Made by a program: the position numbers and the translations under genes. A stretch of 64,000 nt of DNA. It comes from Bacillota bacterium (GTDB taxonomy: Bacteria > Bacillota > Desulfotomaculia > Desulfotomaculales > Ammonificaceae). Position 1 is the stretch's first letter, and every line of letters starts with the position of its first letter. The notes beneath the pieces were generated by a model, which saw nothing but the letters and a program-made list of their open reading frames with translations, searched no databases and had not been told where the DNA came from. The stretch lies in contig JBFMBL010000011.1 in the NCBI GenBank assembly GCA_040755195.1, forward strand, positions 5,754 to 69,753. The letters run 5' to 3'. Below are positions 14,258-45,537 of the stretch, piece by piece.

Positions 14258-14521
14258 GTAACTATTCAGGTGTTTCGTCGTCGGGCGCGGCGATAGGCAA
14301 CGCATTGCTGCGTCAGCCCGCACGGAGCCGAATCCTCACCCAGCACTCAGTTACGCCTTGTAAGATACTACTTCTGAGGAAACGCATATTTGTCCGCCCC
14401 GCGAAACTACGCCTTCATAGCAATCTGAGTGCTGGGCTCCGGTTCGTCTCCGCGGTCTTCCTTGCACTGCATCACTTCTCGCCGCGTTCCGTCAGCGAAA
14501 TGCTGACGGCTGAATAGGTAC
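14258..14521 (-). mobile_element. Family A miniature inverted-repeat element, copy 1 (carries a nested family C hairpin)
   Basis: Terminal inverted repeats GTAACTATTCAG (14258-14269) and CTGAATAGGTAC (14510-14521). Perfect 8-bp direct repeats AGTGGTGA at 14250-14257 and 14522-14529. Confidence 0.8.
14339..14436. repeat. Family C hairpin module (98 bp) nested in family A copy 1
   Basis: Arms CCCAGCACTCAG and CTGAGTGCTGGG. It occupies exactly the position of the apical CGTAC...GTACG hairpin seen in the other family A copies. Confidence 0.7.
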
Positions 14522-14522
14522 A

Positions 14523-15356
14523 GTGGTGATTCTTCTTCTGGGAGGCACTACGGAAGGGAGAGAAGCGGCGCGCGCGCTTGCTTCCCGCGGCTGGCCGGTG
14601 GTGGTAAGCGTGGCTACGCCCTACGGGGCGGAACTGGCGCGCTGCGGGTTCGACGGGGAAGTGCTGGTCGGACGGCGGGATAGCTCTGGTTTTGCCGCGC
14701 TCATCGGGGAGCGCGGGGTCGAGGTCGTGGTTGACGCCACCCATCCCTTCGCCGTTGAGGCCCGGCGGAATGCCCGGCGGGCGGCGGTACAGTGCCAGGT
14801 GCCGTACTTGCGCTTCACCCGTCCGCCGGAGCCCTTACCGGCGCACCCGCTCATCCGGCTGGCGCCGGATTTTGCTGCTGCGGCACGCCTGGCGGCGGCG
14901 CACGGGCCGGTTATCTTTTTAACCACGGGGAGCAAGACCCTTCCCTTTTTTCTCCCGGCGGCGCGGGCAGCCGGCCGCCGTGTGGTGGCGCGGGTGTTGC
15001 CGGAGCCGGAAGTGATTGCCGCGTGCCGGGAGCAGGGTCTTCTGCCGCGCGATATCGTGGCGCTTCAGGGGCCGGTCACCGAAGAACTCAACCGGGCGCT
15101 TTTCCGGGCATACGGCGCGACCGTGGTGGTCACTAAGGAAAGCGGCGGTTCCGGGGGACAGGCGGCGAAAATCAAAGCCGCGCTTGACTTGGGCATTCCA
15201 TTGGTGGTGGTGCGGCGGCCGCCGGAGGAACCGGGGAGTTTTTATGAGGCAGCAGAGCTTATAAAAAGAGTGGATAAGTTGATTGGAGGGGAAGGATTTG
15301 GAGGGAATAGTGGTCCTCGGCCACGGCAGCCGGGCGGCGGTGGACGAAGCGAATAG
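14523..15356 (+). CDS. cbiJ: Cobalt-precorrin-6A reductase CbiJ
   Basis: GTG 14523 (MVILLLGGTTEGREAA). CobK/CbiJ family. The 3' end overlaps cbiX by about 60-74 nt. Confidence 0.8.
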   Translation: MVILLLGGTTEGREAARALASRGWPVVVSVATPYGAELARCGFDGEVLVGRRDSSGFAALIGERGVEVVVDATHPFAVEARRNARRAAVQCQVPYLRFTRPPEPLPAHPLIRLAPDFAAAARLAAAHGPVIFLTTGSKTLPFFLPAARAAGRRVVARVLPEPEVIAACREQGLLPRDIVALQGPVTEELNRALFRAYGATVVVTKESGGSGGQAAKIKAALDLGIPLVVVRRPPEEPGSFYEAAELIKRVDKLIGGEGFGGNSGPRPRQPGGGGRSE

Positions 15357-15687
15357 TTTTCTGGAATTGGTGGCGGGGGAAATCAAAAAGGTATTCGGCG
15401 CCGCCCGGGTGGAGCCGGCCTGGATGAATCCAAAGTCCCAGCGGCAAAATCTTTCCCAGGCGGTAGCCAAACTGGTAGCTGAAGGAGTAAAGAGGGTTGT
15501 CGTGGCGCCGGTCTTCCTGACGGACGGGCTGCACATTCGGAAGGACATTCCGGAAGACATGGCGGCGCTCAAGGAGCAGTACCCGGAGGTGGAGTTCCGG
15601 CTTGCCCGGCACCTCGGCTTTGACTCCCGGGTGGTGGCGATTTTAGCGGAGCGGATCGGGGAGGTGCGTGATGGAGTTTCTTGCTGA
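15283..15687 (+). CDS. cbiX: Small sirohydrochlorin cobaltochelatase CbiX(S)
   Basis: IVVLGHGSR and VVVAPVFLTDGLH. Start is ATG 15283 or TTG 15298. Confidence 0.75.
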   Translation: MEGKDLEGIVVLGHGSRAAVDEANSFLELVAGEIKKVFGAARVEPAWMNPKSQRQNLSQAVAKLVAEGVKRVVVAPVFLTDGLHIRKDIPEDMAALKEQYPEVEFRLARHLGFDSRVVAILAERIGEVRDGVSC

Positions 15688-16303
15688 CCCGCAAGCCATT
15701 GAAGCCCGGAGCATGGCGGCTATCGAGGAACTCCTCCGGCCCTGGAAATCTTCTTTTACCCCGGAGGAGTTTCTGGCGGCGCAAAGGGTGGTGCACACCA
15801 CCGGTGACGTGACGTGCATACAGGATTTGGTCTTCCGGCACGCTCCTCTCGATGCCGGAATCAATGCCTTACGCCGGGGGGTAACGGTTATTTGCGACGT
15901 GAAAATGGTCGCCGCCGGGATCCGCGCCCGGCTGCCGGAAGGGATCGCAGTACGGGTGGCGGTTGAGGAGCCGGGCGTAGCCGAGGATGCTGCCCGGCAA
16001 AAGGTCACGCGGGCGCTGGCGGGTATGCGGCGGCTGAGGGAAGCGCTGCCGGGAAGCATTGTGGCGGTGGGTAACGCCCCAACGGCCCTTTTCGGGGTGC
16101 TGGAACTTTGCGCGGCGGGGGTGCGTCCGGCGCTGGTCATCGGTACGCCCGTGGGTTTCGTCGGCGCGGTCGAGGCCAAGGAGGCGCTGCTCGCCGCCGA
16201 TTTGCCGGCGGTGGTTCTCCGGGGTACTCGGGGCGGCAGCGCCGTTGCCGCGGCGGTGGTGAACGTACTGGCTGTTCTGGCACGGCGGAAGAACCTTTCT
16301 TAA
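15668..16303 (+). CDS. cbiC: Cobalt-precorrin-8 methylmutase CbiC
   Basis: CobH/CbiC family sequence with the VVHTTGD motif. Confidence 0.85.
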   Translation: MMEFLADPQAIEARSMAAIEELLRPWKSSFTPEEFLAAQRVVHTTGDVTCIQDLVFRHAPLDAGINALRRGVTVICDVKMVAAGIRARLPEGIAVRVAVEEPGVAEDAARQKVTRALAGMRRLREALPGSIVAVGNAPTALFGVLELCAAGVRPALVIGTPVGFVGAVEAKEALLAADLPAVVLRGTRGGSAVAAAVVNVLAVLARRKNLS

Positions 16304-16338
16304 GCGACATCATAACGATTAATCGCCGCCACCGGGAA

Positions 16339-16549
16339 TGAAAACATGGACCCTTAAGCTGGTGACTTAGAAGCACTAACGTGACAAAGGCGGAACGCGG
16401 CGAGAAGTGATGCAGTGCAAGGAAGACCGGTAGAGACGAGCCGGAGCGTACATAAGAGGTACGTGAGGACCCGGCTTTGCCGGGCTGACGCAGCAATGCG
16501 TTACTTCTCGCCGCGCCCACCGAAAGAAGCAGCATCTTCCGAGGGAGGG
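16339..16549 (+). repeat. Family A structured repeat, cob-type copy 2
   Basis: Core CGGAACGCGGCGAGAAGT...ACTTCTCGCCGCGCCC (16391-16518). Its flanks are shared with the copy at 19874-20088. It ends in GAGGGAGGG. Confidence 0.7.
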
Positions 16550-16572
16550 CGGGGATTCTGGCGCGGGCGCTA

Positions 16573-18075
16573 ATGATTCAGGGGACGGCTTCGCACGTGG
16601 GCAAGAGTATACTGGCGACGGCCTTCTGCAGGATCTTCAAGCAGGACGGTTACCGGGTGGCGCCGTTCAAGGCGCAGAATATGGCCTTGAATGCCTATGT
16701 CACCGGTGACGGTGGGGAGATCGGCCGGGCTCAGGGGGTGCAGGCGGAAGCGTCGGGGGTTGCGGCAACAGTGGACATGAACCCTGTACTCCTGAAACCC
16801 AAACGAGATACAGTGGCCCAGGTGATTGTGCATGGACGGCCGGTCGGAGATTTTTCGGCCCGGGATTACCGGGAGGACTACTTGGAGAAGGCATGGAAGG
16901 TCGTGACGGAAAGCTTTGCGCGCCTCGCGGCGGAATACGAAATCATTGTTATCGAAGGAGCCGGCAGCCCGGCCGAAGTCAACCTGCGGGATAGAGACAT
17001 CGCCAATATGCGGGCGGCGGCGCTTGCCGATGCCCCGGTTATCCTGGTGGCGGACATTGACCGGGGGGGCGTATTCGCCCAACTTGTGGGGACAATTCAA
17101 CTTCTCCCCCCGGATGAGGCGGCGCGCGTCAGTGGCTTCGTTATTAACAAGTTCCGCGGCGATTCAAGCATTCTGGAGCCGGGCTTGCGCTTCCTGGAGG
17201 AAAACACCGGGCGGCCGGTGCTCGGGGTGCTTCCGTACCTTCCGGATCTGGGGGTGGCGGCGGAAGATTCGGTAAGCTTAAATGACGGGGTCGTACGTCC
17301 CAGCACTCACGTCCGTGAGTGCTGGGCGCTGGATATCGCGGTTGTGCGGCTGCCGCGGATCGCTAATTTTGACGATTTTGACCCGCTGCTGCTGGAACCG
17401 GATGTTTCGCTGCGCTTTGTCACCCACCCGGCGCTCCTGGGCATTCCGGATTTAGTCATTCTCCCCGGAACCAAGAATACAGTGGCCGACCTTCACTGGC
17501 TCTATGCAACCGGTTGGGCGGATGTCATCTCGCAAAGGGCGGGTTGCGGAACGCCGGTCCTAGGCGTCTGCGGCGGGTATCAGATGTTGGGGAAAGAGAT
17601 CAGAGACCCGGAGGGAAGCGAAGATAAGGCCGGAACCTTTTCCGGACTCGGGCTTCTCGACGTGGCTACGGTTTTCCTTCCGGAGAAAGTAACGGCACGT
17701 GTCCGCGGCGCGGTAACGGGAGCAGGAATGCTGGCGGAATTGAAGGGCGAAGAAGTGAACGGGTACGAGATTCACGCCGGCAAAACTGTTCCGGGAGCAG
17801 AGGCGGAACCGGCTTTTGTTTTGAAGCGAAGTCACGGTGAAACAACCGAGGGATCGATCCAGGGGGCGGTCTGGGGGACGTACCTTCACGGCCTTTTTGA
17901 AGCGGACGGGTTTCGCCGGGGGTTTCTAAATCTTTTGCGAAAGCGGCGGGGCTTGGCCCCCGAAGATTTTGGGATATCTTTTATTCGGTGTAAGGAGGCA
18001 AGTTTCGACCGGGTGGCGGCGACGGTGCGGGAACATTTGCGCCTGGATGAGGTTTACAGTTGGCTGAATCTTTAG
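16573..18075 (+). CDS. cobQ: Cobyric acid synthase CobQ/CbiP
   Basis: MIQGTASHVGKS P-loop-like N-terminus and C-terminal glutamine amidotransferase (GVCGGYQMLG). The true start may lie upstream of the first ATG. Confidence 0.9.
   Translation: MIQGTASHVGKSILATAFCRIFKQDGYRVAPFKAQNMALNAYVTGDGGEIGRAQGVQAEASGVAATVDMNPVLLKPKRDTVAQVIVHGRPVGDFSARDYREDYLEKAWKVVTESFARLAAEYEIIVIEGAGSPAEVNLRDRDIANMRAAALADAPVILVADIDRGGVFAQLVGTIQLLPPDEAARVSGFVINKFRGDSSILEPGLRFLEENTGRPVLGVLPYLPDLGVAAEDSVSLNDGVVRPSTHVRECWALDIAVVRLPRIANFDDFDPLLLEPDVSLRFVTHPALLGIPDLVILPGTKNTVADLHWLYATGWADVISQRAGCGTPVLGVCGGYQMLGKEIRDPEGSEDKAGTFSGLGLLDVATVFLPEKVTARVRGAVTGAGMLAELKGEEVNGYEIHAGKTVPGAEAEPAFVLKRSHGETTEGSIQGAVWGTYLHGLFEADGFRRGFLNLLRKRRGLAPEDFGISFIRCKEASFDRVAATVREHLRLDEVYSWLNL
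17299..17326. repeat. Minimal family C palindrome inside the cobQ coding sequence
   Basis: CCCAGCACTCAC-GTCC-GTGAGTGCTGGG. It encodes PSTHVRECW in the inter-domain linker of CobQ. Confidence 0.7.
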
Positions 18076-18113
18076 AGTCTTTGACGTCAAGATCCACGCA
18101 AGATGGCAAGAAG

Positions 18114-18347
18114 AATTAACCACAGAGACACAGAGAACACGGAGAGGAAAAACGGAAATATGGGTATTTATTTTATTTCTAAATCATGAAATTTCTGTTC
18201 TCTGTGAACTCTATGCCTCTGTGGTGACCCAGCACTCAACTTGCTGATCTTAAGACGTGGCGTTCTAAGTTCGTATTATGTACGATGTTACAAAGTAGTT
18301 TTAACGTGTCGTTGAGTGCTGGGTGGTTCCGGCTTGTCCGGGTTAGG
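18114..18347 (+). repeat. Family B intercistronic inverted-repeat element, copy 1 (carries a nested family C module)
   Basis: AATTAACCACAGAGACACAGAGAACA ... TGTTCTCTGTGAACTCTATGCCTCTGTGGTGA ... GGTTCCGGCTTGTCCGGGTTAGG. Homologous to 38450-38727 and 40264-40408. Confidence 0.7.
18228..18323. repeat. Family C hairpin module (96 bp) nested in family B copy 1
   Basis: Arms CCCAGCACTCAAC and GTTGAGTGCTGGG. It replaces the AATATTTT segment present in the other two family B copies. Confidence 0.7.
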
Positions 18348-18401
18348 ATGTCCTTCGAGAGTGAAGGGTTTTAACATCTTGTTCTGAAACAGGGGATTTT
18401 T

Positions 18402-19790
18402 ATGCGGCGGGTGATAATTGCCGGGGCCTCAAGCGGCGCCGGAAAAACGACTGTGGCCGTGGGCCTGATGGCGTCGTTAGCGGCGCAGGGGTTCACGGTC
18501 CAGGGCTTTAAGGCGGGACCTGACTACATCGATCCTGGTTTTCACATGGCGGCCACCGGGCGGCTTTCCCGCAACCTGGATACCTGGATGCTTTCGCCCG
18601 ATGCGGTGCGGGAGGTTTTCCTGCGGGGGTGCCGCGGGGCGGACATGGCTGTGGTTGAGGGGGTGATGGGCCTTTACGACGGGCTGGGGTCGGATAACGA
18701 GTTGGGGAGCACGGCGTACCTGGCCAAGGTCCTCCGGACGCCGGTAATTCTGGTGTTGGACGTTCGGGGAATGGCGGCTTCGGCGGCGGCGGTAGTGCTC
18801 GGCTTTAAGGAATACGATCCGGAGGTTACGCTGGCGGGGATCATCCTCTCTTTTGCCGGGAGCGAATCCCACTGCTCCTTGGTGCGGGAGGCGATAGAGG
18901 AGAAGACGGGCGTACCGGTTTTGGGGTGTCTGGTGCGTGATTCAACGCTGGCGTTGCCCGAACGACACCTGGGCCTGGTTCCGGTACATGAAACGGCGGG
19001 GGTGCGGGAGCAAATCAGTCGGTTGGCGGCAGCGGTTACCGCCGCAGTGAACCTCGACGCGGTGCTGCGAGTGACTGAGACGGCTGAACAGATGCCTGCG
19101 CCGGCGCAGACTGTTTTTCCGGCAGATCCGCAACTTCCCCGGGTGCGGCTCGCGGTTGCCCGTGATGCAGCTTTTAGTTTTTACTATCCGGAGAACCTGG
19201 ATCTCCTGGAAACGTATGGCGCAGAACTTGCCTTTTTCAGCCCCCTGGCCGACGGCGCCCTGCCACCCGGTACAGCCGGACTTTACCTCGGCGGCGGGTT
19301 CCCGGAGGTCTATGCCGCAGAACTCGCGGCTAATGTGAATTTGCGCTGTGCGATAAAGGAAGCGGTAGAGGCGGGGATGCCGGTACTGGCCGAGTGCGGT
19401 GGGCTGATGTATCTGAGTAAGGCTATCACATGCGACGGCGGATCTTGGGCGATGGCAGGGGTGCTGCCGGCAGAGGTGACGCTCACGCGAAAGCTCCAGC
19501 GCCTGGGATACGTGACGGCTGAGGCCCTGACGGATACCTGTCTTTTGCGGCGGGGAGAAACACTGCGGGGGCACGTCTTTCACTACTCTGCTCTTGCCTG
19601 GCGGGAAACGCCGCTTCCCGCCGCATACCGTTTTCGCTTTCACCGGGGAAGGTTACAGGAAGACGGCGCGGTTTACAAAAACGTGGTGGCTTCGTACCTG
19701 CACACGCACTTCATGAACCGGCCCGGGGCAGCGGCACGTTTTGTTGATTTTTGTGATTCACGCGCGAAAGACACGGGCAAACGACTTTGA
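18402..19790 (+). CDS. cbiA: Cobyrinate a,c-diamide synthase CbiA
   Basis: MRRVIIAGASSGAGKTT and a C-terminal amidotransferase domain (ECGGLMYL). Confidence 0.9.
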   Translation: MRRVIIAGASSGAGKTTVAVGLMASLAAQGFTVQGFKAGPDYIDPGFHMAATGRLSRNLDTWMLSPDAVREVFLRGCRGADMAVVEGVMGLYDGLGSDNELGSTAYLAKVLRTPVILVLDVRGMAASAAAVVLGFKEYDPEVTLAGIILSFAGSESHCSLVREAIEEKTGVPVLGCLVRDSTLALPERHLGLVPVHETAGVREQISRLAAAVTAAVNLDAVLRVTETAEQMPAPAQTVFPADPQLPRVRLAVARDAAFSFYYPENLDLLETYGAELAFFSPLADGALPPGTAGLYLGGGFPEVYAAELAANVNLRCAIKEAVEAGMPVLAECGGLMYLSKAITCDGGSWAMAGVLPAEVTLTRKLQRLGYVTAEALTDTCLLRRGETLRGHVFHYSALAWRETPLPAAYRFRFHRGRLQEDGAVYKNVVASYLHTHFMNRPGAAARFVDFCDSRAKDTGKRL

Positions 19791-19873
19791 ATCAGGATAG
19801 TATCTCGCCAAAAAGTTGCTGATCGTTTACAGAGGAGTCCTCCATGCCGCTAATAGCGGCACCACGAAATCTT

Positions 19874-20088
19874 GAAAATGGGTCGACCCGTAAGCTTGTT
19901 ACTTAGAAGCAGTAATGTAACAAAGGCGGAACGCCGTGAGAAGTGACGCAGTGCAAGGCAGACCGTCGGAGGCGAACCGGAGCGTACTGGGAGGTACGTG
20001 AGGATTCGGCTCGGGCGGTCTAACGCAGCAATGCGTTGCTTATCGCGGCGCCCACCGAAAGAAGTACTATCTATTTTCGAGGGAGGGG
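19874..20088 (+). repeat. Family A structured repeat, cob-type copy 3
   Basis: Core CGGAACGCCGTGAGAAGT...GCTTATCGCGGCGCCC. Its 3' GAGGGAGGGG serves as the Shine-Dalgarno sequence for cobT. Confidence 0.7.
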
Positions 20089-20092
20089 TTTT

Positions 20093-21157: not shown

Positions 21158-21207
21158 AAAAACCCGAAAGGTGGACGGAAAAGGAGCGGTGCGTTATGCG
21201 GTGTGTT

Positions 21208-22158: not shown

Positions 22159-22168
22159 GAAGCGAACG

Positions 22169-23203: not shown

Positions 23204-23214
23204 GGGGAAGGCAC

Positions 23215-23988: not shown

Positions 23989-24040
23989 GGGGCGTTACGG
24001 GGAAAATTTGTTTAAATCAACGAAGTTTTGCAGCGGTCTC

Positions 24041-24577
24041 CTAAGGCTTTATGCGGAGGGGGATACCGCAAACCAAAAGGTAGACCATGTCCGCCGCGGC
24101 GGCAACCTGCTGATTCACACGACCCAAGATATCCCGGTAAAGCCTCCCTAAAGGATAAGCCGGTACGACGCCCATCCCCACTTCATTGGTTACCGCCACG
24201 CATGGTCCTTGCCGCTTGCTGATTTCGGTCAGGAAACCTTCCACGCGACCGTCAACCTCCGCCGGAGTAAGACCACCCGCAAGAAGATTGGCCACCCATA
24301 CCCCGATGCAGTCAACCAGTAATACCGCCTCTCGGGGCACCGTCAGGATCGCCCGTGACAGATCAAGGGGTTCTTCCACCGTCTCCCAACCTGCCGGACG
24401 CCGCGCCCGGTGTTCGGCTATACGCGCCCTCATCTCTTCGTCGGTCGCAACAGCCGTGGCCACGTAAACCACCCGGGGAGCTTTGCTGATCAACGACTCC
24501 GCAAAAGTACTCTTGCCGCTGCGGACACCCCCGGTTACCATGAAGATTTTCCCGTGATCGGCATCCCGAGCCTCCAT
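24041..24577 (-). CDS. cobU: Adenosylcobinamide kinase / adenosylcobinamide-phosphate guanylyltransferase CobU
   Basis: P-loop VTGGVRSGKSTFAE. Size and context fit. Confidence 0.85.
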   Translation of the reverse strand: MEARDADHGKIFMVTGGVRSGKSTFAESLISKAPRVVYVATAVATDEEMRARIAEHRARRPAGWETVEEPLDLSRAILTVPREAVLLVDCIGVWVANLLAGGLTPAEVDGRVEGFLTEISKRQGPCVAVTNEVGMGVVPAYPLGRLYRDILGRVNQQVAAAADMVYLLVCGIPLRIKP

Positions 24578-29599: not shown

Positions 29600-29790
29600 T
29601 GCGTATGCGCGTGAAAAGCCATACTCTGCCGAATCGCCACCTGGTGCTTTTGTCCCGGCGGTTACCCGCCGGTTTTGTGACACCGCTTACGGCCGTGGCC
29701 GGCCGGGAGGCACCCGCCGAATAGACCTCGATAAGCCTCCCCCTCGTCAACTGTCTTTGGTGCGATGATGAACTTCACCTGGCTGTTTCA
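29600..29790 (-). ncRNA. glmS ribozyme (GlcN6P-dependent), boundaries approximate
   Basis: Minus strand reads GACGAGGGGGAGGCTTATCGAGGTCTATTCGGCGGGTGCCTCCCGGCC...GCCGTAAGC...GGGACAAAAGCACC. This matches the conserved ribozyme core as I remember it from Bacillus and Thermoanaerobacter, and it lies directly 5' of glmS. Confidence 0.8.
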
Positions 29791-29892
29791 GAAGTCAGAA
29801 GCCAGAAGTCGGAAGTCCGAAAATTTAGGGGAAATTCGCATAGCGAATTTCTACAAAGATTCTGACCTCTGACATCCTGCATCCGACATCCG
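29789..29892. repeat. Heptad-periodic imperfect inverted repeat around a central hairpin
   Basis: CAGAAGT CAGAAGC CAGAAGT CGGAAGT ... GAAATTCGC-ata-GCGAATTTC ... TCTGACC TCTGACA TCCTGCA TCCGACA. Confidence 0.6.
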
Positions 29893-29990
29893 TTTCTGCC
29901 ATGCTCGTTCCTGATCGCACCCGAAGGTTTAACTTTCAACCTCCACAAACAGTTCTGGCGCTTGCAAATTGTCAGTTAAGAAACCTCATT

Positions 29991-33046: not shown

Positions 33047-33066
33047 TTATCCCTTATACCTCCGAT

Positions 33067-33244
33067 GCAACCATTCAAGTGCTTCCGTGGGGCGCGGCGA
33101 TAAGCGGCGCATAACTTCGTCAGGCCCTACCGGCCAGGTCCTCACGTATTCCCGTATACGCTCCGGCCTGTCCGGTTGTGCCTTCCTTGTTCTACTTGCT
33201 TCTGGCCGCGTTCCGTAAGTGTTAGGCGACAGATGAATAGTTAC
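33067..33244 (-). mobile_element. Family A miniature inverted-repeat element, copy 4
   Basis: Termini GCAACCATTCAAG and ATGAATAGTTAC. Perfect 8-bp direct repeats CCTCCGAT at 33059-33066 and 33245-33252. Confidence 0.8.
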
Positions 33245-33371
33245 CCTCCGATAACGGTCGTCTGTCGCCAGTTGTCGGTGGTTAATTTCTCATTTCTTTT
33301 TGCACCGACCAGCTAACTCAGCAAAAACACTGCATTCTGCCTTCTATATTCTGAATTCTGACTTCTGTATT

Positions 33372-33860
33372 CTACTTCTTAAGCCTTGCTGCTACGTAGG
33401 GTATGAGCCCCCCCGCCGCTATAATAGCCTGCATGAACGGGGGAATCGGCCGGGCCTGGTACTCCTGTCCGGTACCGGCCACGCTGATCCTGCCTGTGTC
33501 GAGTTCGATACGCACCCGGCTTCCCGGCGGGATTGACTCCGCTTCCGAACATTCGAGAATGGGAAGCCCGATGTTGAACGCGTTGCGGTAAAATATCCGG
33601 GCGAAGCTTCCGGCCACCACGCAGGCCACACCGGCGGCCTTTATGGCCACAGGCGCGTGCTCCCGCGAGGAACCACACCCGAAGTTGGCTCCGGCCACTA
33701 TCACGTCGCCGGGTTGAACGCGTCCGGCGAATGTGGGATCGGCGTCCTCCATGCAGTGCAGCGCCAGCTCCGCCGGGTCGCTGGTGTTAAGGTAACGGGC
33801 CGGGATGATGAGGTCCGTATCGACGTTATCGCCGAATTTAAAGACGTTTCCTTCGTTCAT
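33372..33860 (-). CDS. leuD: 3-isopropylmalate dehydratase small subunit LeuD
   Basis: [16 protein letters not shown] and [13 protein letters not shown] motifs. Confidence 0.85.
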
Positions 33861-35175: not shown

Positions 35176-35226
35176 CGTTCAACGTTCAACGTTCAAGGTT
35201 CAACGTTTCTGTATTCTGTATTCTGA
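35176..35226. repeat. Tandem heptads (CGTTCAA x4 variant, then TCTGTAT x2) in the leuA-leuC spacer
   Basis: CGTTCAA CGTTCAA CGTTCAA GGTTCAA CGTTTCTGTATTCTGTATTCTGA. Confidence 0.6.
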
Positions 35227-36762: not shown

Positions 36763-36780
36763 TCCTGTGTCCCTCCAGAT

Positions 36781-38439
36781 TTAATCTATAGCCTCATCAA
36801 GACCGCTGCCTGCCAGAACCATGGGATAAACGTTTTCTTCCGGCTCAATCAGGCAGTTTACAAGCGCCGGACCATCCTTCGCCAGGACTTCTTCCACTAT
36901 CCCATCAAAAGCCGCGGCGCTGTCCACCGTATAGCCGGCCAGGCCGTAAACCCCGGCGAGGGCGGCAAAATCGGGGACAAAGCTGAAATCCACCCCGGAG
37001 TAACGCTTATCGCAGTAAAACTCCTGCAACTGCCGGACCATTCCGAGCCGCTTGTTGTTCAGGATAAAAATCTTCACGGTAAGGCCTTGCTCGGCCAGCG
37101 TGCCGAGTTCGGTCATCATCATCTGGAAACTTCCGTCCCCGCTCACCAGGATCACCTGTTTGTCGGGGCAGCCGAATTTCGCCCCGACGGAAGCCGGAAG
37201 GCCGTATCCCATGCATCCCAGACCGCCCGAGGTAACAAGCGTGCGGGGATGTTTGAAGCAAAAATACTGCGCCACCCACATCTGGTGCTGCCCGACATCG
37301 GTTACCACGACACAGTCCCCCCGGGTCAGGAAACTGAGCCGCTCAATGACATACTGGGGCTTAAAGCCCGATTCCCGTCCGTAGTCCAGAGGATAATCGC
37401 GCTTGTACCTTGCGACGGTCTCCAGCCAGTCTCCGCTTTCGCGCGGCGACAAGAGCGGGAGCAGCGCCGATAATACCTGTTTCACGTCGCCGACGATCGG
37501 CAGGTTCGGGCGGACATTCTTACCGATTTCCGCCGGGTCGACGTCCACGTGAATCACACGGGCGTTTGGAGCAAACTTTTCCACCGTTCCGGTAACCCTG
37601 TCCGCAAACCGTACCCCCAGCCCGATCAAGAGATCGGAGTTGGTTATTGCCAGATTCGCGTAACGGGTGCCGTGAAGACCCGCCATACCAAGGAACAGCC
37701 TGTGATCACCCGGAAAACCGCCGAGCCCCATCAGGGTTGACGCCACCGGCGCCGAAATTGTTTCCGCAAGCCTTATCAACTCCGGCGCGGCGCCGCTGCT
37801 TACAACCCCGCCACCCGCAAGAATCACGGGTTTGCTGGATTCGAAAATCATCTTTGCCGCCTGGGCTACCTGCGCCGGGTGCCCCTTGTACGTAGGTTTA
37901 TAACCCTTGAGTTGGACCTTTTCCGGGTATTCAAACTCAGTTGTGGCCCCGGTCACATCCCGCGGGAGGTCGATCAGCACCGGTCCCGGCCGGCCGGTCC
38001 GGGCAAGGTGAAAGGCCTTTTTAATCACGGAAGGAACCGCCGACGGGTCTTTTACCAGGAAGTTATGCTTGGTGATAGGCATTGTAATGCCTGTGATATC
38101 CACTTCTTGAAACGCGTCGGTGCCTACCTGAACCGTTGGAACCTGTCCGGTAAATAGTACTATCGGGATTGAATCCATATACGCGGTGGCAATCCCGGTG
38201 ACCAGGTTCGTGGCCCCTGGGCCGGAGGTGGCAAAACATACCCCGACCCGGCCGGTCACCCGGGCGTATCCGTTGGCGGCATGTACGGCGCCCTGCTCGT
38301 TGCGCACCAGGACATGTTTGATCTTGGCGCCGTAAAGCGCGTCATAAACCGGAAGCACCGCCCCGCCGGGGTAGCCGAAAACCAGCTCTACCCCTTCCTT
38401 CTCAAGACACCGGATGACCGCTTCACCGACGGTAATCAT
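36781..38439 (-). CDS. Acetolactate synthase large (catalytic) subunit, second copy without an adjacent small subunit
   Basis: ATG 38439 follows AGGAGG. TPP-enzyme sequence GYPGGAVLPVYDAL...GGLGCMGYGLPA. Confidence 0.85.
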   Translation of the reverse strand: MITVGEAVIRCLEKEGVELVFGYPGGAVLPVYDALYGAKIKHVLVRNEQGAVHAANGYARVTGRVGVCFATSGPGATNLVTGIATAYMDSIPIVLFTGQVPTVQVGTDAFQEVDITGITMPITKHNFLVKDPSAVPSVIKKAFHLARTGRPGPVLIDLPRDVTGATTEFEYPEKVQLKGYKPTYKGHPAQVAQAAKMIFESSKPVILAGGGVVSSGAAPELIRLAETISAPVASTLMGLGGFPGDHRLFLGMAGLHGTRYANLAITNSDLLIGLGVRFADRVTGTVEKFAPNARVIHVDVDPAEIGKNVRPNLPIVGDVKQVLSALLPLLSPRESGDWLETVARYKRDYPLDYGRESGFKPQYVIERLSFLTRGDCVVVTDVGQHQMWVAQYFCFKHPRTLVTSGGLGCMGYGLPASVGAKFGCPDKQVILVSGDGSFQMMMTELGTLAEQGLTVKIFILNNKRLGMVRQLQEFYCDKRYSGVDFSFVPDFAALAGVYGLAGYTVDSAAAFDGIVEEVLAKDGPALVNCLIEPEENVYPMVLAGSGLDEAID

Positions 38440-38449
38440 CGTTTCGCCT

Positions 38450-38727
38450 CCTAAACCCGGACAAGCCGGAACCAAAATATTTCACCACAGAGGCACAGAG
38501 TTCACAGAGAACAGAAATATAAAAATGGCATCCATTCGGGACTAAAATCCAATAGCCAGAAGCCAGAATATATGGAAAAACCATGAATTACTTGCTTTCC
38601 ATTAAAATTCTCAGCTTCGTGTCCTTCGTACTCTTCGTGGTTAAAAACCGTCTATTTTGATTTTCATGATGGTAACCAAATCTCCGTCTTTTCCCTCTCT
38701 GTGTTCTCTGTGTCTCTGTGGTTAATT
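38450..38727 (-). repeat. Family B intercistronic inverted-repeat element, copy 2 (long form)
   Basis: CCTAAACCCGGACAAGCCGGAACCAAAATATTTCACCACAGAGGCACAGAGTTCACAGAGAAC ... CTCTCTGTGTTCTCTGTGTCTCTGTGGTTAATT. Confidence 0.7.
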
Positions 38728-38747
38728 CCTCTTCTTATTCTTCACCG

Positions 38748-39740
38748 TTATTTTTTCAGCCAGGACATCATCTGGCGCAGTTCCTTGCCGATCTCTTCTA
38801 TCTGGTGAGCGCGCTCCCGCCGGCGGACGGCCTGGAGCACCGGCTGGTTGGCCTGGTTCTCCAGCACCCACTCACGGGCGAATTCACCGTTCTGGATCTC
38901 GTCCAGGATGCACCGCATTTCCTCCCGCACCCCTTCATCAATAACCCGGGGGCCGCTTCTGTAGTCCCCGTACTCCGCCGTGTTGCTCACCCTGCGGCGC
39001 ATCTCGGTAAGACCGCCTTCATAAATCAGGTCGACAATTAGCTTCAACTCGTGCAAACACTCAAAGTAGGCGATTTCCGGGGCGTAGCCCGCTTCCACCA
39101 GTGTTTCGAAGCCGGCCTTGATCAACTCCGATACACCGCCGCAAAGCACGCACTGTTCGCCGAAAAGGTCGGTTTCCGTCTCTTCGCGGAAGGTGGTCTC
39201 GAAAACACCCGCCCGCGTCAAACCTATCGCTTTCGCGTAGGCCAGCGCAAGATCCCGCGCCCTGCCGGAATAATCCTGGTGCACGGCGATCAAGCCGGGA
39301 ACCCCGGCGCCCTCTGTGTAGAGCCGCCGGAGCATCGGACCCGGGCTCTTGGGCGCCACCATGAAGACGTCGACATCCTTCGGCGGCTGTATCTGGCCGA
39401 AGTGTATATTAAATCCGTGTGAAAACATAAGGGCTTTCCCGGTGGTGAGATGAGGCGCTATTTCTTCCCGGTAAACCCTCGCCTGCTGCTCATCCGGTAT
39501 AAGCATCTGGATTACTTGAGCCTGGCGGGCGGCATCCGCAACAGTCGCCAAAGCCAGACCATCCGCCTGCACCCTTTCTGCGGAAGAGCTTGAGACCCTG
39601 AGTCCGACAACGACATTTATTCCGCTGTCCTTCAGGTTCAGAGCCTGGGCCCTCCCCTGGCTCCCGTAACCCATTACGGCAACCACTTTGTCTGCTAAAA
39701 CATCCAAACCCGCATCCCGGTCATAATAAACACGAATCAT
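38748..39740 (-). CDS. ilvC: Ketol-acid reductoisomerase IlvC
   Basis: [21 protein letters not shown] and the typical class I KARI sequence. Confidence 0.95.
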
Positions 39741-40252
39741 TCTACTGCCTCCTTGCCATTCATTGTAATATCCTTGGTGCCCCGGAGCATGGCCACCTTC
39801 CCGGTCCGTACCAGCTCCTTGACCCCGAAAGGCTTGAGCGCGTTTTCCAACGCGTTTACCTTCCCCTCATCCCCCGTGACCTCAACGATCATCGTCTTCC
39901 GCCCTATATCCACGATGTGCGCCCGGAAGATTTCCACTATCTGAATAACCTCCGCCCGCCTCGACGGGTCCGCGCTTACCTTGAGCAACGCCAGTTCCCG
40001 GTCGACGTGCTCTTCCTTGGTCACATCCTGCACCTTCAATACCTCGACCAGCTTGCGGAGCTGCTTGATGACCTGCTCGAGCACCCGGTCGTCCCCTTCC
40101 ACCACGATGGTCATCCGGGAAACCGCGGGGTTTTCCGTCCGGCCCACCGCAAGGCTGTCGATATTGAACCCGCGGCGGCTGAAAAGTCCCGCCACCCGGG
40201 CCAGAACCCCGGGGTTGTTTTCTACAAGAACGGCTAAGGTATGGCGCATCAC
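39737..40252 (-). CDS. ilvN: Acetolactate synthase small (regulatory) subunit IlvN
   Basis: [34 protein letters not shown] domain. Confidence 0.9.
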
Positions 40253-40263
40253 AAATATACCTC

Positions 40264-40408
40264 CCTAACCCGGACAAGCCGGAACCAAAATACTCCACCA
40301 CAGAGTCACAGAGTTCACAGAGAATATTAATATCAAGATAAACAACAAAAATGAATACCCATATTTCCGTTTTTCCCCTCCGTGTGCTCTGTGCCTCTGT
40401 GGTTAATT
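40264..40408 (-). repeat. Family B intercistronic inverted-repeat element, copy 3 (short form)
   Basis: CCTAACCCGGACAAGCCGGAACCAAAATACTCCACCACAGAGTCACAGAGTTCACAGAGAA ... CGTGTGCTCTGTGCCTCTGTGGTTAATT. Confidence 0.7.
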
Positions 40409-40421
40409 TTTGCTGCCATTT

Positions 40422-42095
40422 TTAACCTAACATCTTTTCCAAAGATTCGCCGGGCGGAACCATCGGCACCACGTTTTCTTCACGTTCGATTACGAAGTCA
40501 AGGAACACCGGTTTTGAAGAAGCGATAGCCTGTTCGAGCGCCGGTCCCACTTCCGCCGGTTTGGTCACCCGGATTCCCTCCGCGCCATAGGCCTCGGCCA
40601 CCTTGACAAAGTCCGGACCGTAGATCTCGGTATGCGAATAGCGGCGCTTGTAGAAAAGCTCCTGCCACTGTCGCACCATACCCAGGAACCCGTTGTCCAT
40701 AATGGCCACGTTAACCGGCAGGTCGTTGCTGACGACCGTCGCCAGCTCTTGAATGTTCATCTGAATCGAACCGTCGCCGGCGATGTCAAAAACCGTTTCT
40801 TCCGGGCAGGCCACCTGTACCCCTATCGCGGCGGGGAACCCGAAGCCCATCGTCCCCAGTCCGCCAGAAGAAATAAAGGAGCGAGGCCGCGTATAGGTAT
40901 AAAACTGGGCCGCCCACATCTGATTTTGTCCAACTTCGGTGGTTATTCGGGCTTTCCCCCCGGTTATCCGGTCGAGTTCCTTAATGATGTACTGCGGTTT
41001 CAACCCGTTTTCCTCAAACTGAAGCGGATATTCCTTTTTCCAGATGTTTATTTTGTCTATCCAGGCCGGGTGCGACGCGCCCTTGAGCGCTTCAAGCAGC
41101 TTCCGGAGCACCACCCGGACGTCTCCCGTTACCGGCACGTCCACGCGGACGTTCTTGGAAACCTCCGCTTCATCGATATCGATATGGACTATTTTCGCCT
41201 CGGGCGCAAAGGTCTCCACCTTACCTGTCACCCGGTCGTCAAACCGCGCCCCCACCGCGATCAGAACATCGCACTCACAGATGGCGTAATTCGCGTAACG
41301 CGTCCCGTGCATCCCCAGCATTCCGAGTGAAAGCGGGTGATTACCGGGAAAACCGCCGATGCCCATAAGCGTCGTGGTCACCGGCGCCATAATCAACTCG
41401 GCAAGCTGCCGCAACTCCTCGGCGGCGCCCGAAATGATCACACCGCCCCCGGCGTAAATCACCGGACGCTGGGCGGAAGCGATCAGACCGGCGGCCGCGA
41501 GCACCGCAGCGGGGTCCGGGTCGAGCACCGGTTTGTATCCAGGCAGGTCCACCGGACCCGGGTCCACATACACAGCCTTACCAGCCGAAACATCTTTGGG
41601 CACGTCGATCAGGACGGGACCGGGACGGCCGGTGGTTGCGATATGAAACGCTTCCTTTACGGTCCGCGCAAGGTCTTTAACATCCTTAACCAAAAAATTG
41701 TGTTTCGTCACCGGAAGCGTAATGCCGGTAATATCCGCTTCCTGAAATGAATCCCTGCCGATCAGGTCGGTTGACACCTGCCCGGTAAACGCCACGAGGG
41801 GGCTCGAGTCCATGAAAGCCGTTGCAATTCCCGTGACCAGGTTTGTGGCCCCCGGTCCGGAAGTGGCCATGCATACCCCGGGCCGGCCGGTCGCGCGGGC
41901 GTAGCCGTCGGCGGCATGTGCCGCGGCCTGCTCGTGACGCATCAGGATGTGCCGGATGTCCGCATCGTACAGCGCGTCATAAATCGGCAACACCGACCCG
42001 CCCGGATAACCGAAGATGACCTCGGCTCCTTCCCTCTTCAGACTCTTAATCAGGATGTCTCCACCGGATATTTTTTTCAAGAACCCCACCCCCAT
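40422..42095 (-). CDS. ilvB: Acetolactate synthase large subunit IlvB
   Basis: TPP enzyme ([27 protein letters not shown]) immediately upstream of ilvN. Exact start uncertain. Confidence 0.9.
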
Positions 42096-42107
42096 CTCAG
42101 TTAGTGC

Positions 42108-43778
42108 TTATCCACCGCGTGAAGAAAAGACCGCACCTTTGCTGGCCGAAGAGACCATACCGGCATAGCGGCCCAGGTAACCATGCGAAATCTTGGACTC
42201 CCAGGACGGTAAGGACGCAAGCCGGGCATCAATCTCGGCCTCATCCAGCAGCACCTCAAGCCGCCGCCCGGGGATGTCTATCTCGATCTCATCACCGTTG
42301 CGCAGCGCCGCAATCGGCCCTCTCGCCGCCGCCTCGGGAGAAATGTGCCCGATGGCCGCCCCGCGGGAAGCACCCGAAAAACGCCCGTCGGTGAGCAGCG
42401 CCACGTCCTTGTCCCGGCCGAGCCCCGCCAGCGTTGCGGTCGCGGTAAGCATCTCCCTCATTCCCGGGCCGCCGCGCGGCCCCTCGTAACGGACTACAAG
42501 GACGTCCCCCTGCTCGAATGCGCCGTTCATAATCGCCTCAACCGCGTCTTCCTCGCTGTCGAAAACACGCGCGGGCCCTTTGTGCTGCAGCATCTCCGGC
42601 GCTACCGCCGCCTGCTTGACCACCGCGCCCTCGGGCGCCAGGTTACCGAAAAGGACCGCCAGTCCGCCTGTGGGACTGTAAGCTTCCGAAATCGACCTGA
42701 TTACCTCCGGACGGCGTACCGCCCGCCCGTTTATATTATCTTTCACCGCCCGCCCCGTAACCGTAAGCGCTTCCGTATCCATCAGCCCGGCGCCGGTTAG
42801 TACGTTCATAACGGCGGGGATTCCCCCGGCCTCATCCAGATCCTGAAGGTGGAAAGGCCCCGCCGGGTCCAAACGGCACAGGTTCGGTGTTTTCGCGCTG
42901 AGCTCGTTTATCTCCCGGAGGTCGATTTCCACGCCGGCTTCATGGGCGATCGCCGTCAGGTGAAGGATGGTGTTGGTCGAGCAGCCGAGCGCCATGTCGA
43001 CCGTAAAGGCGTTTCTAACCGCTGCCGGCGTAAAGATCCGCGAGGGAGTGAGGTTTTCCTTGACCATCTCCACCGCCCGCATCCCCGAAATCTTCGCCAG
43101 GCGGCGCCGCGCCGCGCTCACCGCAGGGATCGTCCCGTTGCCGGGCAGCGCCATACCGAGGGCCTCGGTAAGACAGTTCATCGAATTCGCCGTAAACATT
43201 CCGGCGCACGAGCCGCAGCCGGGGCAGGCGACCTCTTCCAGCTCCGCAAGCTCCTCCGTGGTCATGGAACCCGCCTTCACCTTACCCACGGCCTCGAACA
43301 CGCTGTTCAAGGAAACGTTCCGTCCGTGAAAACGCCCCGCAAGCATCGGGCCGCCGCTTACCATGATCGCCGGAATGTTAAGCCTCGCCGCGGCTATCAT
43401 CATCCCGGGAACGATCTTGTCGCACGCCGTCACAAAAACAAGCCCGTCAAAGGCGTGGGCCTCCACCATCACCTCCACGCTGTCGGCGATAAGCTCGCGG
43501 GAGGCCAGGGAGTATTTCATACCGCGGTGGTTCATGGCGATCCCGTCACAAACCCCGATGGTTGGAAATTCGACCGGCACGCCCCCGGCCATGCGCACTC
43601 CGGCCTTCACCGCTTCGGTAATATCCCTGAGGTGAATATGCCCGGGAATTATTTCGTTAAAGGAGTTGACCACCCCGATGATCGGACGGTCGAACTCCGC
43701 GTCCGTAAAACCCAGCGCCTTAAAAAGCGAGCGGTGCGGCGCTTTTTCAAGCCCTTTCTTTACCGTGTCACTCCGCAA
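42108..43778 (-). CDS. ilvD: Dihydroxy-acid dehydratase IlvD
   Basis: [31 protein letters not shown], typical IlvD sequence. Confidence 0.95.
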
Positions 43779-43795
43779 AATCTAACCCCCTTTTT

Positions 43796-44128
43796 GAGAT
43801 GTGAGAGGTGTGAGGTTGGAGGTGAGAATTCCTGTGGATTCTCACTTCTCACTTCCCGATCTCAGGATCAAGTACTTCCATCCGAAACTTTCAACGGAAG
43901 GTTCGCAACTGTTTATTGAATCGTAACCCGTAACTCCCTTTTCCGGCTCTTCAATCCGGAACTCCGGACTTTTGACTTATGACTCGGGACTCGCAACTCA
44001 GGGCTCGCATTGATATTTCCAATTCCTCACCCCGGACTGAGGATTTTCGAATTTCGACTCAGGATTTGATTCGCGACCTTCCCTGCCTGGATTCCGGACT
44101 TAGGACTGAGGACTTTCGACTTAGGACT
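43796..44128. repeat. Low-complexity ilvE-ilvD spacer made of short-period imperfect inverted and tandem motifs
   Basis: GTGAGAGGTGTGAGGTTGGAGGTGAGAAT/ATTCTCACTTCTCACTTCC palindrome, then GGACT(C/T/G)(G/A)GG-type units (GACTCGGGACTCGCAACTCAGGG, GGACTTAGGACTGAGGACTTTCGACTTAGGAC). Confidence 0.55.
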
Positions 44129-45007
44129 TTATTTAAAGATTTCCGGCCCGTCAACCTTCGTCAACTCGCGAAACGCCCGGATCAACTCCCAGGTGATCGG
44201 ACCCGGGCGACCGTCGCCGATGGGCCGTGCGTCCACCTTGACCACGGGGATCACCTCTGCGCCGGTACCCGTCAGGAAGCACTCGTCGGCGATGAAGATA
44301 TCGTGCCTGGTGAAAACCTTTTCCGCGACGGGGATTCCCTTTTCGCGCGCCAGGTCTATTACCGTGTTTCTGGTTATGCCCTCAAGAGCGCCCAAAAACA
44401 ACGGCGGCGTAATCAGCGTGCCGTTTTTTATGATGAAGATATTGTCCGCCGAAGCCTCGGCAACATACCCGTCAGCGGTAAGCATAATCGCCTCCTGGGC
44501 AGCGCTGAGGTGCGATTCGATCTTCGCCATTATATTGTTCAAGTAGTTAAGCGATTTAATCCGCGGGTTCAGCGCCTCCGGGATGTTGCGCCGGGTGGAA
44601 ACCGTAACGACATCCAGACCTTTCTCATATAATTCCTTCGGATAAAGCTGGATTGTAGCCGCGATGCAAAAAACCGTAGGTTTTGAACATTTATTCGGGT
44701 CAAGCCCCAGATCGCCCTTCCCGCGCGTCACCACAAGCCTGATGTACCCGTCCCGGATGTTGTTCCGGCGGCACGACTCCAAAACGACCTCCTGCATCTG
44801 CTCTTTATCAAGCGGGATCTCGAGAAGAATTGATTTAGCCGACTCGTAGAGCCGGTTAAGGTGCGCCTGGAGCTTGAAGACCCGGCCGTGATAAGCCCTG
44901 ATCCCCTCGAAAACACCGTCACCGTACAACAGCCCGTGGTCGAAAACGGAGACCGCAGCCTTTTCCTCGGGAACGAATTCGCCATCCATGTAGATTAAGA
45001 GCCCCAT
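44129..45007 (-). CDS. ilvE: Branched-chain amino-acid aminotransferase IlvE
   Basis: ATG 45007 follows AAGGAGGAAG. VFDHGLLYGDGVFEGIRAY, class IV aminotransferase. Confidence 0.9.
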   Translation of the reverse strand: MGLLIYMDGEFVPEEKAAVSVFDHGLLYGDGVFEGIRAYHGRVFKLQAHLNRLYESAKSILLEIPLDKEQMQEVVLESCRRNNIRDGYIRLVVTRGKGDLGLDPNKCSKPTVFCIAATIQLYPKELYEKGLDVVTVSTRRNIPEALNPRIKSLNYLNNIMAKIESHLSAAQEAIMLTADGYVAEASADNIFIIKNGTLITPPLFLGALEGITRNTVIDLAREKGIPVAEKVFTRHDIFIADECFLTGTGAEVIPVVKVDARPIGDGRPGPITWELIRAFRELTKVDGPEIFK

Positions 45008-45047
45008 ACGTTTCTTCCTCCTTGGCTTGATAAAACTATAAACTAAA

Positions 45048-45537
45048 GCCTCCCGCCCGGTCCGCACTTAGTGCTTGACCAGGGACGAGAGGCTAAAACC
45101 TCCGCGGTACCACCCCGGTTGCCGCTACCTCACGGTAAAACGGCCTCTTTGGTGTGTCGTGTTCAACACACGGCTTTGGTAACGGGATACCATCCCGGAA
45201 CAGGCTACTGGGAACGTAAACATTCAGGTGCTCCCGAGGGGCGCGGCAATAAGCGGCGCATAACTTCGTCAGGCTTGCCGGCCAGGTCCTCACGTATTTC
45301 CGTATACGCTCCGGCCTGTCCGGCTGCGCCTTCCTCGTTCTACTTGCTTCTTGCCGCGTTCCGCAAACGTTAGGTGACGACTGAATAGTTACTACTCGGG
45401 ACCTAACATCCTTTTCGCCCTTCGACTCGGGGGTGATTAAGAAACGCGCTCCAGCACCGGCTCGCACCAAACCCGGCTCGCTTTGCAGCAAGACAGCGAT
45501 CCTTCGTCCCCGTCTTCGTCTTTAACGGCTATGATTT
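45048..45537 (-). promoter_or_regulatory. T-box leader (candidate Leu specifier CUU), interrupted by family A copy 5
   Basis: Minus strand has a Stem I distal AGCGAGCCGGGTTTGGTGCGAGCCGG, the T-box sequence AACCGGGGTGGTACCGCGG (45102-45120), and an F-box-like CCGTTA. Terminator hairpin GCCTCTCGTCCCTGGTC...GACCGGGCGGGAGGC (45048-45093) is followed by TTTAGTTTATAGTTTTAT. Confidence 0.75.
45216..45392 (-). mobile_element. Family A miniature inverted-repeat element, copy 5, inside the T-box leader
   Basis: Termini GTAAACATTCAG (45216-45227) and CTGAATAGTTAC (45381-45392). Flanked by a decayed direct repeat, TACTGGGA (45206-45213) versus TACTCGGGA (45393-45401). Confidence 0.7.

Follow-up and report, generated by a model that had tools for sequence, protein, structure and literature searches.

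ERIC/IRU and Correia/NEMIS are the described hairpin repeats closest to the elements reported here. In reviews, ERIC is a MITE (miniature inverted-repeat transposable element) of Enterobacteriaceae and Vibrionaceae with short terminal inverted repeats (TIRs) and a TA at each end; it is transcribed together with the adjacent genes, and its effect on RNase E-mediated mRNA decay depends on orientation. The Correia/NEMIS elements of Neisseria are co-transcribed MITEs that fold as long RNA hairpins between operon genes and alter mRNA processing, and RNase III cleavage has been shown for them. Among insertion sequences (IS), the nearest are ISGka4, which has been assigned to the ISLre2 family (PMC8024623), and ISDge4 of Deinococcus (IS66 family, ISBst12 group), which has the ends GTGACTACTCAGCA and GTAACTGCTCAGCA and an 8-bp repeat (PMC12898284). 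Here we analyse 64,000 nucleotides from a Bacillota bacterium of the Ammonificaceae (assembly GCA_040755195.1, contig JBFMBL010000011.1, positions 5,754 to 69,753), hereafter the window, which holds five copies, c1 to c5, of a hairpin repeat that we call family A. It is likely that these copies form an ERIC-like MITE family of uncultured Bacillota, with ISGka4-type ends and with a second form that carries a ribosome-binding site. The covarying hairpin repeats are real; they are not a new class of RNA gene.

Five copies in two forms

A covariance model built from related copies and run over the window recovered c1 to c5 and no other strong match; the single other match, at 29758-29923, is weak and probably due to chance. 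An earlier note on this DNA had claimed five copies of one family, and the model finds exactly these, in place and strand, in the 64 kb. What the note overlooked is that they come in two architectures, a short form (form 1) and a long form (form 2), and that their core resembles ERIC. The short-form copies, all on the minus strand, are c1 (14258-14521, 264 nt, 96.9 bits), c4 (33067-33244, 132.4 bits) and c5 (45216-45392, 141.7 bits). The long-form copies, both on the plus strand, are c2 (16303-16549, 123 bits) and c3 (19823-20088, 123.3 bits); a hidden Markov model (HMM) of the additional 5' module described below, the head, finds them with E = 1.6e-10 and E = 3.7e-14, respectively.

The aligned core of the five copies spans about 125 nt (123-128), from CGGAAC to GCGCCC. 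Among the parts that all copies had been said to share, CGGAAC, the basal stem, GGAGC, TGAGGA and GCGCCC are present in all five. The short apical hairpin is present in four, c1 having in its place a hairpin of about 100 nt (CCAGCACTCAG...CTGAGTGCTGG). In the pairs returned by a repeat finder, c2 and c3 are about 85% identical and c4 and c5 about 90%, which shows that the copies are not simple recent duplicates.

The short form is a miniature transposable element

Copies c1, c4 and c5 are bounded by the TIRs GTAACTATTCAG / CTGAATAGTTAC (in c1, GTAACTATTCAG at 14258-14269 and CTGAATAGGTAC at 14510-14521), and the same ends are found on many copies in related loci. A short-form element consists of an imperfect hairpin core of about 125 nt between TIRs of 12-20 bp. 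Immediately outside, c1 and c4 are flanked by perfect 8-bp target-site duplications. That of c1 is AGTGGTGA, at 14250-14257 and 14522-14529 on the plus strand; its left copy contains the TGA stop codon of cbiH and its right copy the GTG start codon of cbiJ (14523). That of c4, read on the minus strand, is ATCGGAGG, with the upstream copy at 33245-33252 and the downstream copy at 33059-33066, the latter now being the Shine-Dalgarno sequence 12 nt before the cimA ATG. Other short-form loci carry perfect duplications of unrelated sequence, 8-9 bp long: GGCTGAGCA at L033 (the 9-bp repeat), TTTTCCAG at L051, TAATCCTT at L006 and CTCCCCGA at L025. Internally deleted elements of 74-103 nt have these ends too, and those with an intact duplication carry it as a perfect 8-bp repeat, at L026 (3411-3484, GTTCAGAG), L022 (6812-6898, TGTCTGTT) and L051 (CATAAAGT). 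A nested copy of 418 nt (L007, 5109-5526) has the 8-bp duplication GAAAAAAC. The elements thus range from 74 to 418 nt, without coding capacity, and occur in five copies in 64 kb and in about 50 distinct copies overall. TIRs, a duplication of fixed length, the lack of coding capacity, the many copies and the decay products together identify a MITE: c1, c4 and c5 are MITEs, that is, non-autonomous elements of the DDE type.

A mobile origin had been raised before and was worth considering. The route proposed for it, transposition as single-stranded DNA (ssDNA) in the manner of IS200/IS605, is not supported, since a DDE transposase is what the classical TIRs and the 8-bp duplications point to. 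No Y1 transposase gene of the IS200/IS605 or REP/REPIN type was seen near the window copies.

In the window, c1 lies antisense to the cob operon, exactly between cbiH, which ends at 14257, and cbiJ, which starts at 14523. The cbiJ open reading frame (ORF) from 14523 aligns with family models from residue 1-3. Because TGA and GTG both lie within the duplicated AGTGGTGA, the site before insertion was a stop/start overlap of the GTGA type. Insertion of c1 regenerated the cbiH stop and the cbiJ start, and the element now splits two genes that were formerly translationally coupled. Copy c4 lies in sense within the ribosome-binding site of cimA (citramalate synthase), which became duplicated. These two copies are clean natural cases in which the 8-bp duplication spares a stop/start overlap or a ribosome-binding site; the duplicated 8 bp would let insertions survive in very tight sites. 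Copy c5 lies in sense in the predicted 5' untranslated region of ilvE. A near-consensus sigma-70-type promoter (TTGACA-18-TATACT, 11/12) is located at 45544-45573 on the minus strand, about 150 nt upstream of c5; it implies an ilvE leader of about 470 nt, and this leader has no Rfam match.

Ends of the ISGka4 type

On plasmid pHTA426 of Geobacillus kaustophilus, ISGka4 has the inverted repeats GTAACTATTCAGCCC / GTATCTATTCAGCCC and an 8-bp duplication, AACTCGTC; NCBI labels the pHTA426 gene 'IS66-like element ISGka4 family transposase'. The family A TIR is identical to the ISGka4 end over 14-15 nt (GTAACTATTCAGCCC) and similar over about 20 nt, and an 8-bp duplication is common to both. ISDge4 is alike in its ends (GTAACTGCTCAGCA) and in its 8-bp repeat, and the subterminal box shows some similarity in the comparison with ISGka4 and ISDge4 (TTACGAGAGCC vs TTACGGAACGCC). 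ISGka4 differs from family A in size, being about 1.6 kb long, whereas family A elements have 100-420 nt and no transposase gene, and also in the 9-bp repeats that it gave in experiments (PMC8024623). It also lacks the hairpin core and is therefore not the parent element. Judged from the ends, ISGka4 would instead identify the kind of enzyme expected to recognise those of family A. Such an ISGka4-type transposase, supplied in trans, would cut at the short-form TIRs and integrate the element through a cut staggered by 8 bp.

The long form: a proposed union of the core with a leader-like repeat

Copies c2 and c3 share with most copies in other metagenome-assembled genomes (MAGs) an extra 80-110 nt, approximately, on the 5' side (the head) and about 30 nt on the 3' side (the tail). 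The tail consists of a small hairpin and, after it, a Shine-Dalgarno sequence; the start codon usually comes within about 10 nt. In c2, the head (16303-16362) is followed by a linker, the core hairpin (16391-16518) and the tail (16519-16549, small hairpin and Shine-Dalgarno sequence), and the element lies in sense between cbiC and cobQ. In c3, the head occupies 19823-19898, the core 19927-20053 and the tail 20054-20088; the tail ends in GAGGGAGGGG, 4 nt before the cobT ATG (20093), again in sense. All long-form copies checked are in sense orientation and most lie directly before a start codon, the genes that follow being cpsB, glmU, atpD, flhA, cbiQ, cobQ, cobT and genes for a BadF/BcrA-type ATPase and a LapA-domain protein. 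Upstream of nurA and of a phosphoglycerate mutase gene the element is further away, with the starts 165-231 nt downstream.

A head is present beside every long-form core. The head profile also finds copies without a core directly before a Shine-Dalgarno sequence, for example at a ku-like ORF in L028 and at 7071-7140 in the window. At these core-less sites a short loop separates GAAAA from a facing UUUUC. The long form has its core between the two. The stand-alone head at 7071-7140 (plus strand) comprises an SD-like GGGAG, the hairpin GTGGCG...CGCCAC and GGAGGAAAAATAG, reaches only E = 0.011 with the head HMM, and is directly followed by TTTTCGGGAGAG and an ATG. It resembles an empty version of the site at which c2 and c3 carry the core. 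We read the long form as a separate leader-like repeat into which the core has been fused or inserted. A leader peptide in the head was considered and rejected, since the ATG is missing in several copies and the frame is not conserved. At L016 (4382-4700), what comes after a long-form copy is not a gene but an ORF of 13 codons and a strong hairpin resembling an intrinsic terminator (GGCGGGGCGGCAAGGAAGCCGCCC + TTTTTCTT); this copy could give rise to a short RNA of its own.

Relatives in other genomes

Searching one genome of each species with a pattern gave 16 true copies, distributed over five MAGs of uncultured Bacillota (MAG002, MAG088, MAG044, DeMMO5_7 and one Thermoanaerobacteraceae MAG), and two further matches in coding DNA that are due to chance. 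A looser pattern, used on metagenomes, added 30 loci. With the covariance model, the total comes to about 50 distinct copies, about 45 of them outside the window. They include a divergent clade from GC-rich contigs (the GC-rich clade), in which the apical motif CCGGAGCGUAC-loop-GUACGUGAGGA is retained, as are the blocks CAGAUGCAAGGCG and CAACGCCGCAGAUGG.

Relative to neighbouring ORFs with a coding-like GC content at third codon positions, about eight short-form copies are in sense and four are antisense; the antisense copies are c1 and all three copies of MAG002. Judged by gene neighbourhood, insertion sites differ between related genomes: MAG002 has a copy between cimA and glmM, in opposite orientation, whereas the window has no copy in the cimA-glmM spacer and carries c4 upstream of cimA.

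Covariation and strand asymmetry of the hairpin

In single-sequence RNA folding, every copy forms a single long imperfect hairpin (z-scores from -3.5 to -8.6). The compensatory changes that had been reported for the basal stem are borne out when the copies are read base by base: at position 3, c2 has G:C where c3 has C:G; at position 6, the G:C of c2 corresponds to A:T in c5; and at position 12, c2 has T:A, c4 and c5 have C:G and c3 has a T.G wobble. Covariation was scored on a MAFFT alignment of 19 Bacillota copies that was not fitted to the structure, using the pairs given by RNAalifold. Both sides have changed in 14 of the 34 pairs, a number equalled in 1 of 500 shuffles. Paired cells amounted to 96.1%, compared with 88.2% in shuffles (0 of 500 as high), and the covariation score was 0.331, compared with 0.179 in shuffles (0 of 500 as high) and 0.04-0.09 when the partners were slid. 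Against both the shuffled and the slid controls, the covariation of the hairpin exceeds chance.

Over 50 copies, the model pairs comprise 1511 Watson-Crick, 102 G:U and 12 A:C cells. A single pair, which closes the apical helix and is G:U in 48 of the 50 copies, accounts for 48 of the 102 G:U cells. Without this invariant pair, the ratio of G:U to A:C is 11:4 in form 1, 29:2 in form 2 and 14:5 in the GC-rich clade, counts that come from related sequences rather than independent events and so are suggestive. Since what reads as G:T on one strand reads as A:C on its complement, the excess of G:U marks one strand as constrained, probably as RNA. The proposal that the structure is under selection is upheld in part: the strand-specific G:U excess and the invariant G:U pair speak for it, while the covariation of the arms is partly explicable by subfamily history.

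Several known motifs were considered for the hairpin and set aside. A mimic of the sarcin-ricin loop (UACGUGAGGA vs UACGAGAGGA) was rejected because the equivalent of the bulged G covaries with the 5' strand (63:71, C:G vs U:A). For a K-turn and for domain V of a group II intron, the loop geometry is unfit on direct reading, and Rfam gave no intron match. The GGA of the CAAGG loop is not kept in the divergent clade, which disfavours CsrA-type GGA motifs, and the R'/R'' consensus of an integron attC site is absent.

No known RNA family and probably no riboswitch

The earlier note could match the hairpin to no RNA family, and Rfam 15 scans of the window copies, the related loci and the GC-rich clade, at the gathering score and at E <= 10, likewise returned no family. 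A dedicated RNA gene or riboswitch, which it had left open as an RNA function, is not supported: the downstream genes are unrelated, the TIR-bounded form stands in both orientations to its neighbours, and no consistent sense association with functionally related genes was seen across the copies. For the long form, the unrelated genes downstream rule out a metabolite-specific riboswitch. T-box, cobalamin and ppGpp riboswitches were each rejected on the negative Rfam results and on the unrelated downstream genes.

Probable distant relationship of the core to ERIC

A search of viral contigs with the apical motif led to enterobacterial sequences. In the enterobacterial set (L053-L077) and at the ffh-rpsP locus of E. 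coli (L078, 2485-2605) we noted an unannotated hairpin, about 110 nt long in E. coli, whose apical motif is identical (CCGGAGCGTACACGCAGTACGTGAGGA). Of 5426 complete E. coli genomes, 2150 carry a single copy of this ffh-rpsP element, which other enterobacteria have as well. It is not RU-3, which is a REP-type sequence and unrelated.

As a reference we used a true ERIC, the copy between ybhJ and ybhI of E. coli, picked by the classical primer sequences. In pairwise local alignments scored against dinucleotide shuffles, ERIC gave z = 9.8 with a metagenomic member of the family (L027, 7351-7476; covariance model 57.7 bits), 4.7 with L038, 4.5 with L013, 4.4 with L030, 4.3 with c2 and 4.0 with the E. 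coli ffh-rpsP element. Reverse-complement scores were at background; the similarity is weak but directional. The blocks shared in the alignment of family A and ERIC are AGGAAGGCG, GGAGC, GTGA and GACGCAGCA.ATGC. In minimum-energy folds, both have a helix that leads to a tandem G.A internal loop and then to an apical helix of 6 bp with G.U as its closing pair (GCUUAC/GUAAGU in ERIC, GCGUAC/GUACGU in family A). Both are imperfect palindromes of about 125 nt (about 127 bp in ERIC, as a single long hairpin, and 123-128 nt in the family A core), intergenic, mostly in DNA that is transcribed or, for family A, predicted to be, and present in many copies, and both have size variants with internal insertions. 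Alignment and fold make the core a probable, not proven, distant relative of ERIC/IRU.

The two also differ. Close copies of family A are all in Bacillota MAGs, whereas ERIC is found in Enterobacteriaceae and Vibrionaceae. Family A has the end GTAACTATTCAG and an 8-bp duplication, in contrast to the short TIRs flanked by TA of ERIC, and it has the additional long form with head and tail modules. ERIC matches the Rfam family of Vibrio RNA AS5 (RF02818, V_AS5) at 46.9 bits, below the gathering score, and the enterobacterial relatives match the Xanthomonas small RNA (sRNA) sX9 (RF02228) in their apical motif at 29-32 bits, also below the gathering score and on the opposite strand. The window copies match neither of the two families at E <= 10. 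Both of these Rfam families appear to be built on members of the same hairpin-repeat superfamily. Correia/NEMIS, alike in general design, has no sequence relation to family A and differs in its TA duplication and 24-bp TIRs.

Origin and role of family A

The duplications, ends, decay products, link to ISGka4, differing insertion sites, orientation and gene association, covariation and ERIC-like core are the grounds on which we consider an ERIC-like MITE family likely. Most copies would be co-transcribed with their neighbours. Co-transcription would keep the hairpin foldable as RNA on one strand, and foldability as RNA would explain both the compensatory changes and the G:U excess. The fold may be kept because insertions at operon junctions that are unfolded or misfolded would be more harmful, or because it is used in processing, as in ERIC and Correia. 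By analogy with ERIC, the hairpin is probably not a ligand sensor but acts on how the mRNA is processed, on its stability or on the start of translation.

A number of observations weigh against an ERIC-like MITE family. The flanks of c5 form an imperfect 10-bp direct repeat (GTCCCGAGTA / GTTCCCAGTA, 8/10). No recognisable TIR or duplication was found on the long-form copies c2 and c3, whose ends are degenerate and for which the duplication test is uninformative. No shared terminal repeats, ends or duplications were found in the GC-rich clade, and its core is mostly antisense to both neighbours, a placement not predicted by a simple explanation as co-transcribed RNA. A tblastn search of the window and about 600 kb of related loci found no ISGka4-like transposase, no full-length parent with a hairpin core was found, and plasmid records gave no match to the element. 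In profile searches for the link to ERIC, the covariance model reached 10.7 bits (E = 0.64) and nhmmer found none, so the ERIC relation rests on the pairwise scores and the shared architecture. Finally, the apical motif of about 30 nt, CCGGAGCGUA...UACGUGAGGA, is nearly invariant from Bacillota to E. coli, and this conservation exceeds the needs of a selfish repeat.

The near-invariant motif, and a core that stands between different types of ends, may keep alive another reading, in which the core hairpin is a conserved functional module, either a structured RNA or an ssDNA site for a widespread host factor, that has been captured repeatedly by various transposon ends, the MITE being no more than its carrier in Bacillota. 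The motif is identical or nearly so in Bacillota, the GC-rich clade, the E. coli ffh-rpsP element and other enterobacteria, with the apical closing pair held as G:U in nearly every copy. The unpaired GGA/GA loop is asymmetric, and hence it is not two copies of one duplex binding site. Ends vary by lineage, with GTAAC and 8 bp here, TA in ERIC and an unrelated 23-bp TIR in L048, other GC-rich copies have no shared ends, and the sub-threshold matches of the enterobacterial copies are to the opposite strand of an expressed sRNA, sX9. However, such a module has no known partner protein or phenotype; the copies look selfish in their number, nesting and decay; they stand in mixed orientation to genes; and horizontal spread of one transposon superfamily could also give the wide distribution. 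We therefore regard capture of a functional module as unlikely. The same holds for its broadest version, which we think doubtful, where the hairpin would be an ancient cross-phylum module, kept for its binding to a universal factor of the host (a ribonuclease, say, or a protein associated with the ribosome) and taken up as cargo by different transposases. ERIC, the ffh-rpsP element, the Xanthomonas sX9 locus, the elements of GC-rich soil and sediment bacteria and the Bacillota MITEs would then, with the same doubt, be versions of it, and the near-invariant CCGGAGCGUA-loop-UACGUGAGGA, the tandem G.A loop and the fixed G.U pair its possible marks. If it is true that conservation of the apical motif reflects function, it would imply an unrecognised RNA-protein interaction common to very distant bacteria.

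Two further explanations were weighed. Covariation could arise without folding if the arms were inverted copies of a transposase-binding sequence that changed together when subfamilies switched specificity. The element is indeed a transposon with inverted ends, and many of the compensatory changes are subfamily haplotypes (GAA/TTC, GGG/CCC, AGG/CCT). Yet the best-kept blocks, CGGAAC, CAAGGAAG, GGAGC, GTGAGGA, CTGACG and GCGCCC, have no mirror partner, G:T exceeds A:C by about 4-15 to 1 with one G:T invariant, neither of which recognition of a duplex predicts, and ISGka4 itself does without the core; we consider this explanation highly improbable. Still less credit goes to the idea that the copies are cis-regulatory leader RNAs, riboswitches or attenuators, through which a common signal controls the downstream gene. 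It would suit c2 to c5, which lie in sense just upstream of genes, the long form, which ends in a small hairpin beside the Shine-Dalgarno sequence and has the strongest G:U excess, and the window subfamilies, which loosely track function (c2 and c3 in the cob operon, c4 and c5 at branched-chain amino-acid genes). It is largely refuted by downstream genes that are functionally unrelated across genomes, by c1 and the three short-form copies of MAG002, which are antisense to their neighbours, by the perfect target duplications and deleted derivatives, which show insertion events, by elements at different sites in related genomes and by the lack of an Rfam match.

An ERIC-like MITE family in Bacillota would bear on ERIC itself, which has so far been treated as a peculiarity of enteric bacteria and vibrios; the ERIC literature cited here names no transposase. 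An ERIC-like hairpin within defined IS-type ends (GTAACTATTCAGCC) provides a testable candidate for the mover of such elements. Genome annotation should mask these elements as repeats instead of calling new RNA genes at them.

Other repeats and modules in the region

The window also contains a glmS ribozyme (29631-29973, minus strand, 90.1 bits) with a 183-nt insertion in the P1 loop. Inverted heptamer arrays (GGATGTC/GGAAGTC type) on the two sides of the palindrome GTAGAAATTCGCTATGCGAATTTCC make up the insertion. This module recurs, nested, within the 418-nt family A MITE at L007 (5109-5526), and a related heptamer array lies at 33335-33390 in the window, upstream of c4. Hairpins closed by CCCAGCACTCAG/CTGAGTGCTGGG, with unrelated interiors, take the place of the loop of the apical stem in c1 (14351-14451) and of the loop of the head hairpin in L007 (about 1650-1760 and 5109-5526), which suggests another small module that lands in hairpin loops.

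A second repeat family, family B, is built on CCACAGAGGCACAGAGTTCACAGAGAAC and is found in the window at 18100-18226, 38447-38526, 38689-38746 and 40260-40427, in both orientations. These repeats are intergenic, in the cob and ilv regions, and Rfam gives only meaningless matches of the miRNA type. Tandem GTTCAAC heptamer arrays lie at 35176-35206 and 46432-46476; together with GGACC-N-GGTCC hairpins, such arrays fill intergenic regions of related MAGs and metagenome contigs. Between c4 and c5 lie three ORFs of about 560 amino acids on the minus strand (36781-38475, 40422-42095 and 42108-43778), perhaps acetolactate-synthase-like paralogues, with family B repeats in the gaps between the ORFs. 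Two of the three share 300 nt at 74% identity (38048-38347 vs 41683-41982).

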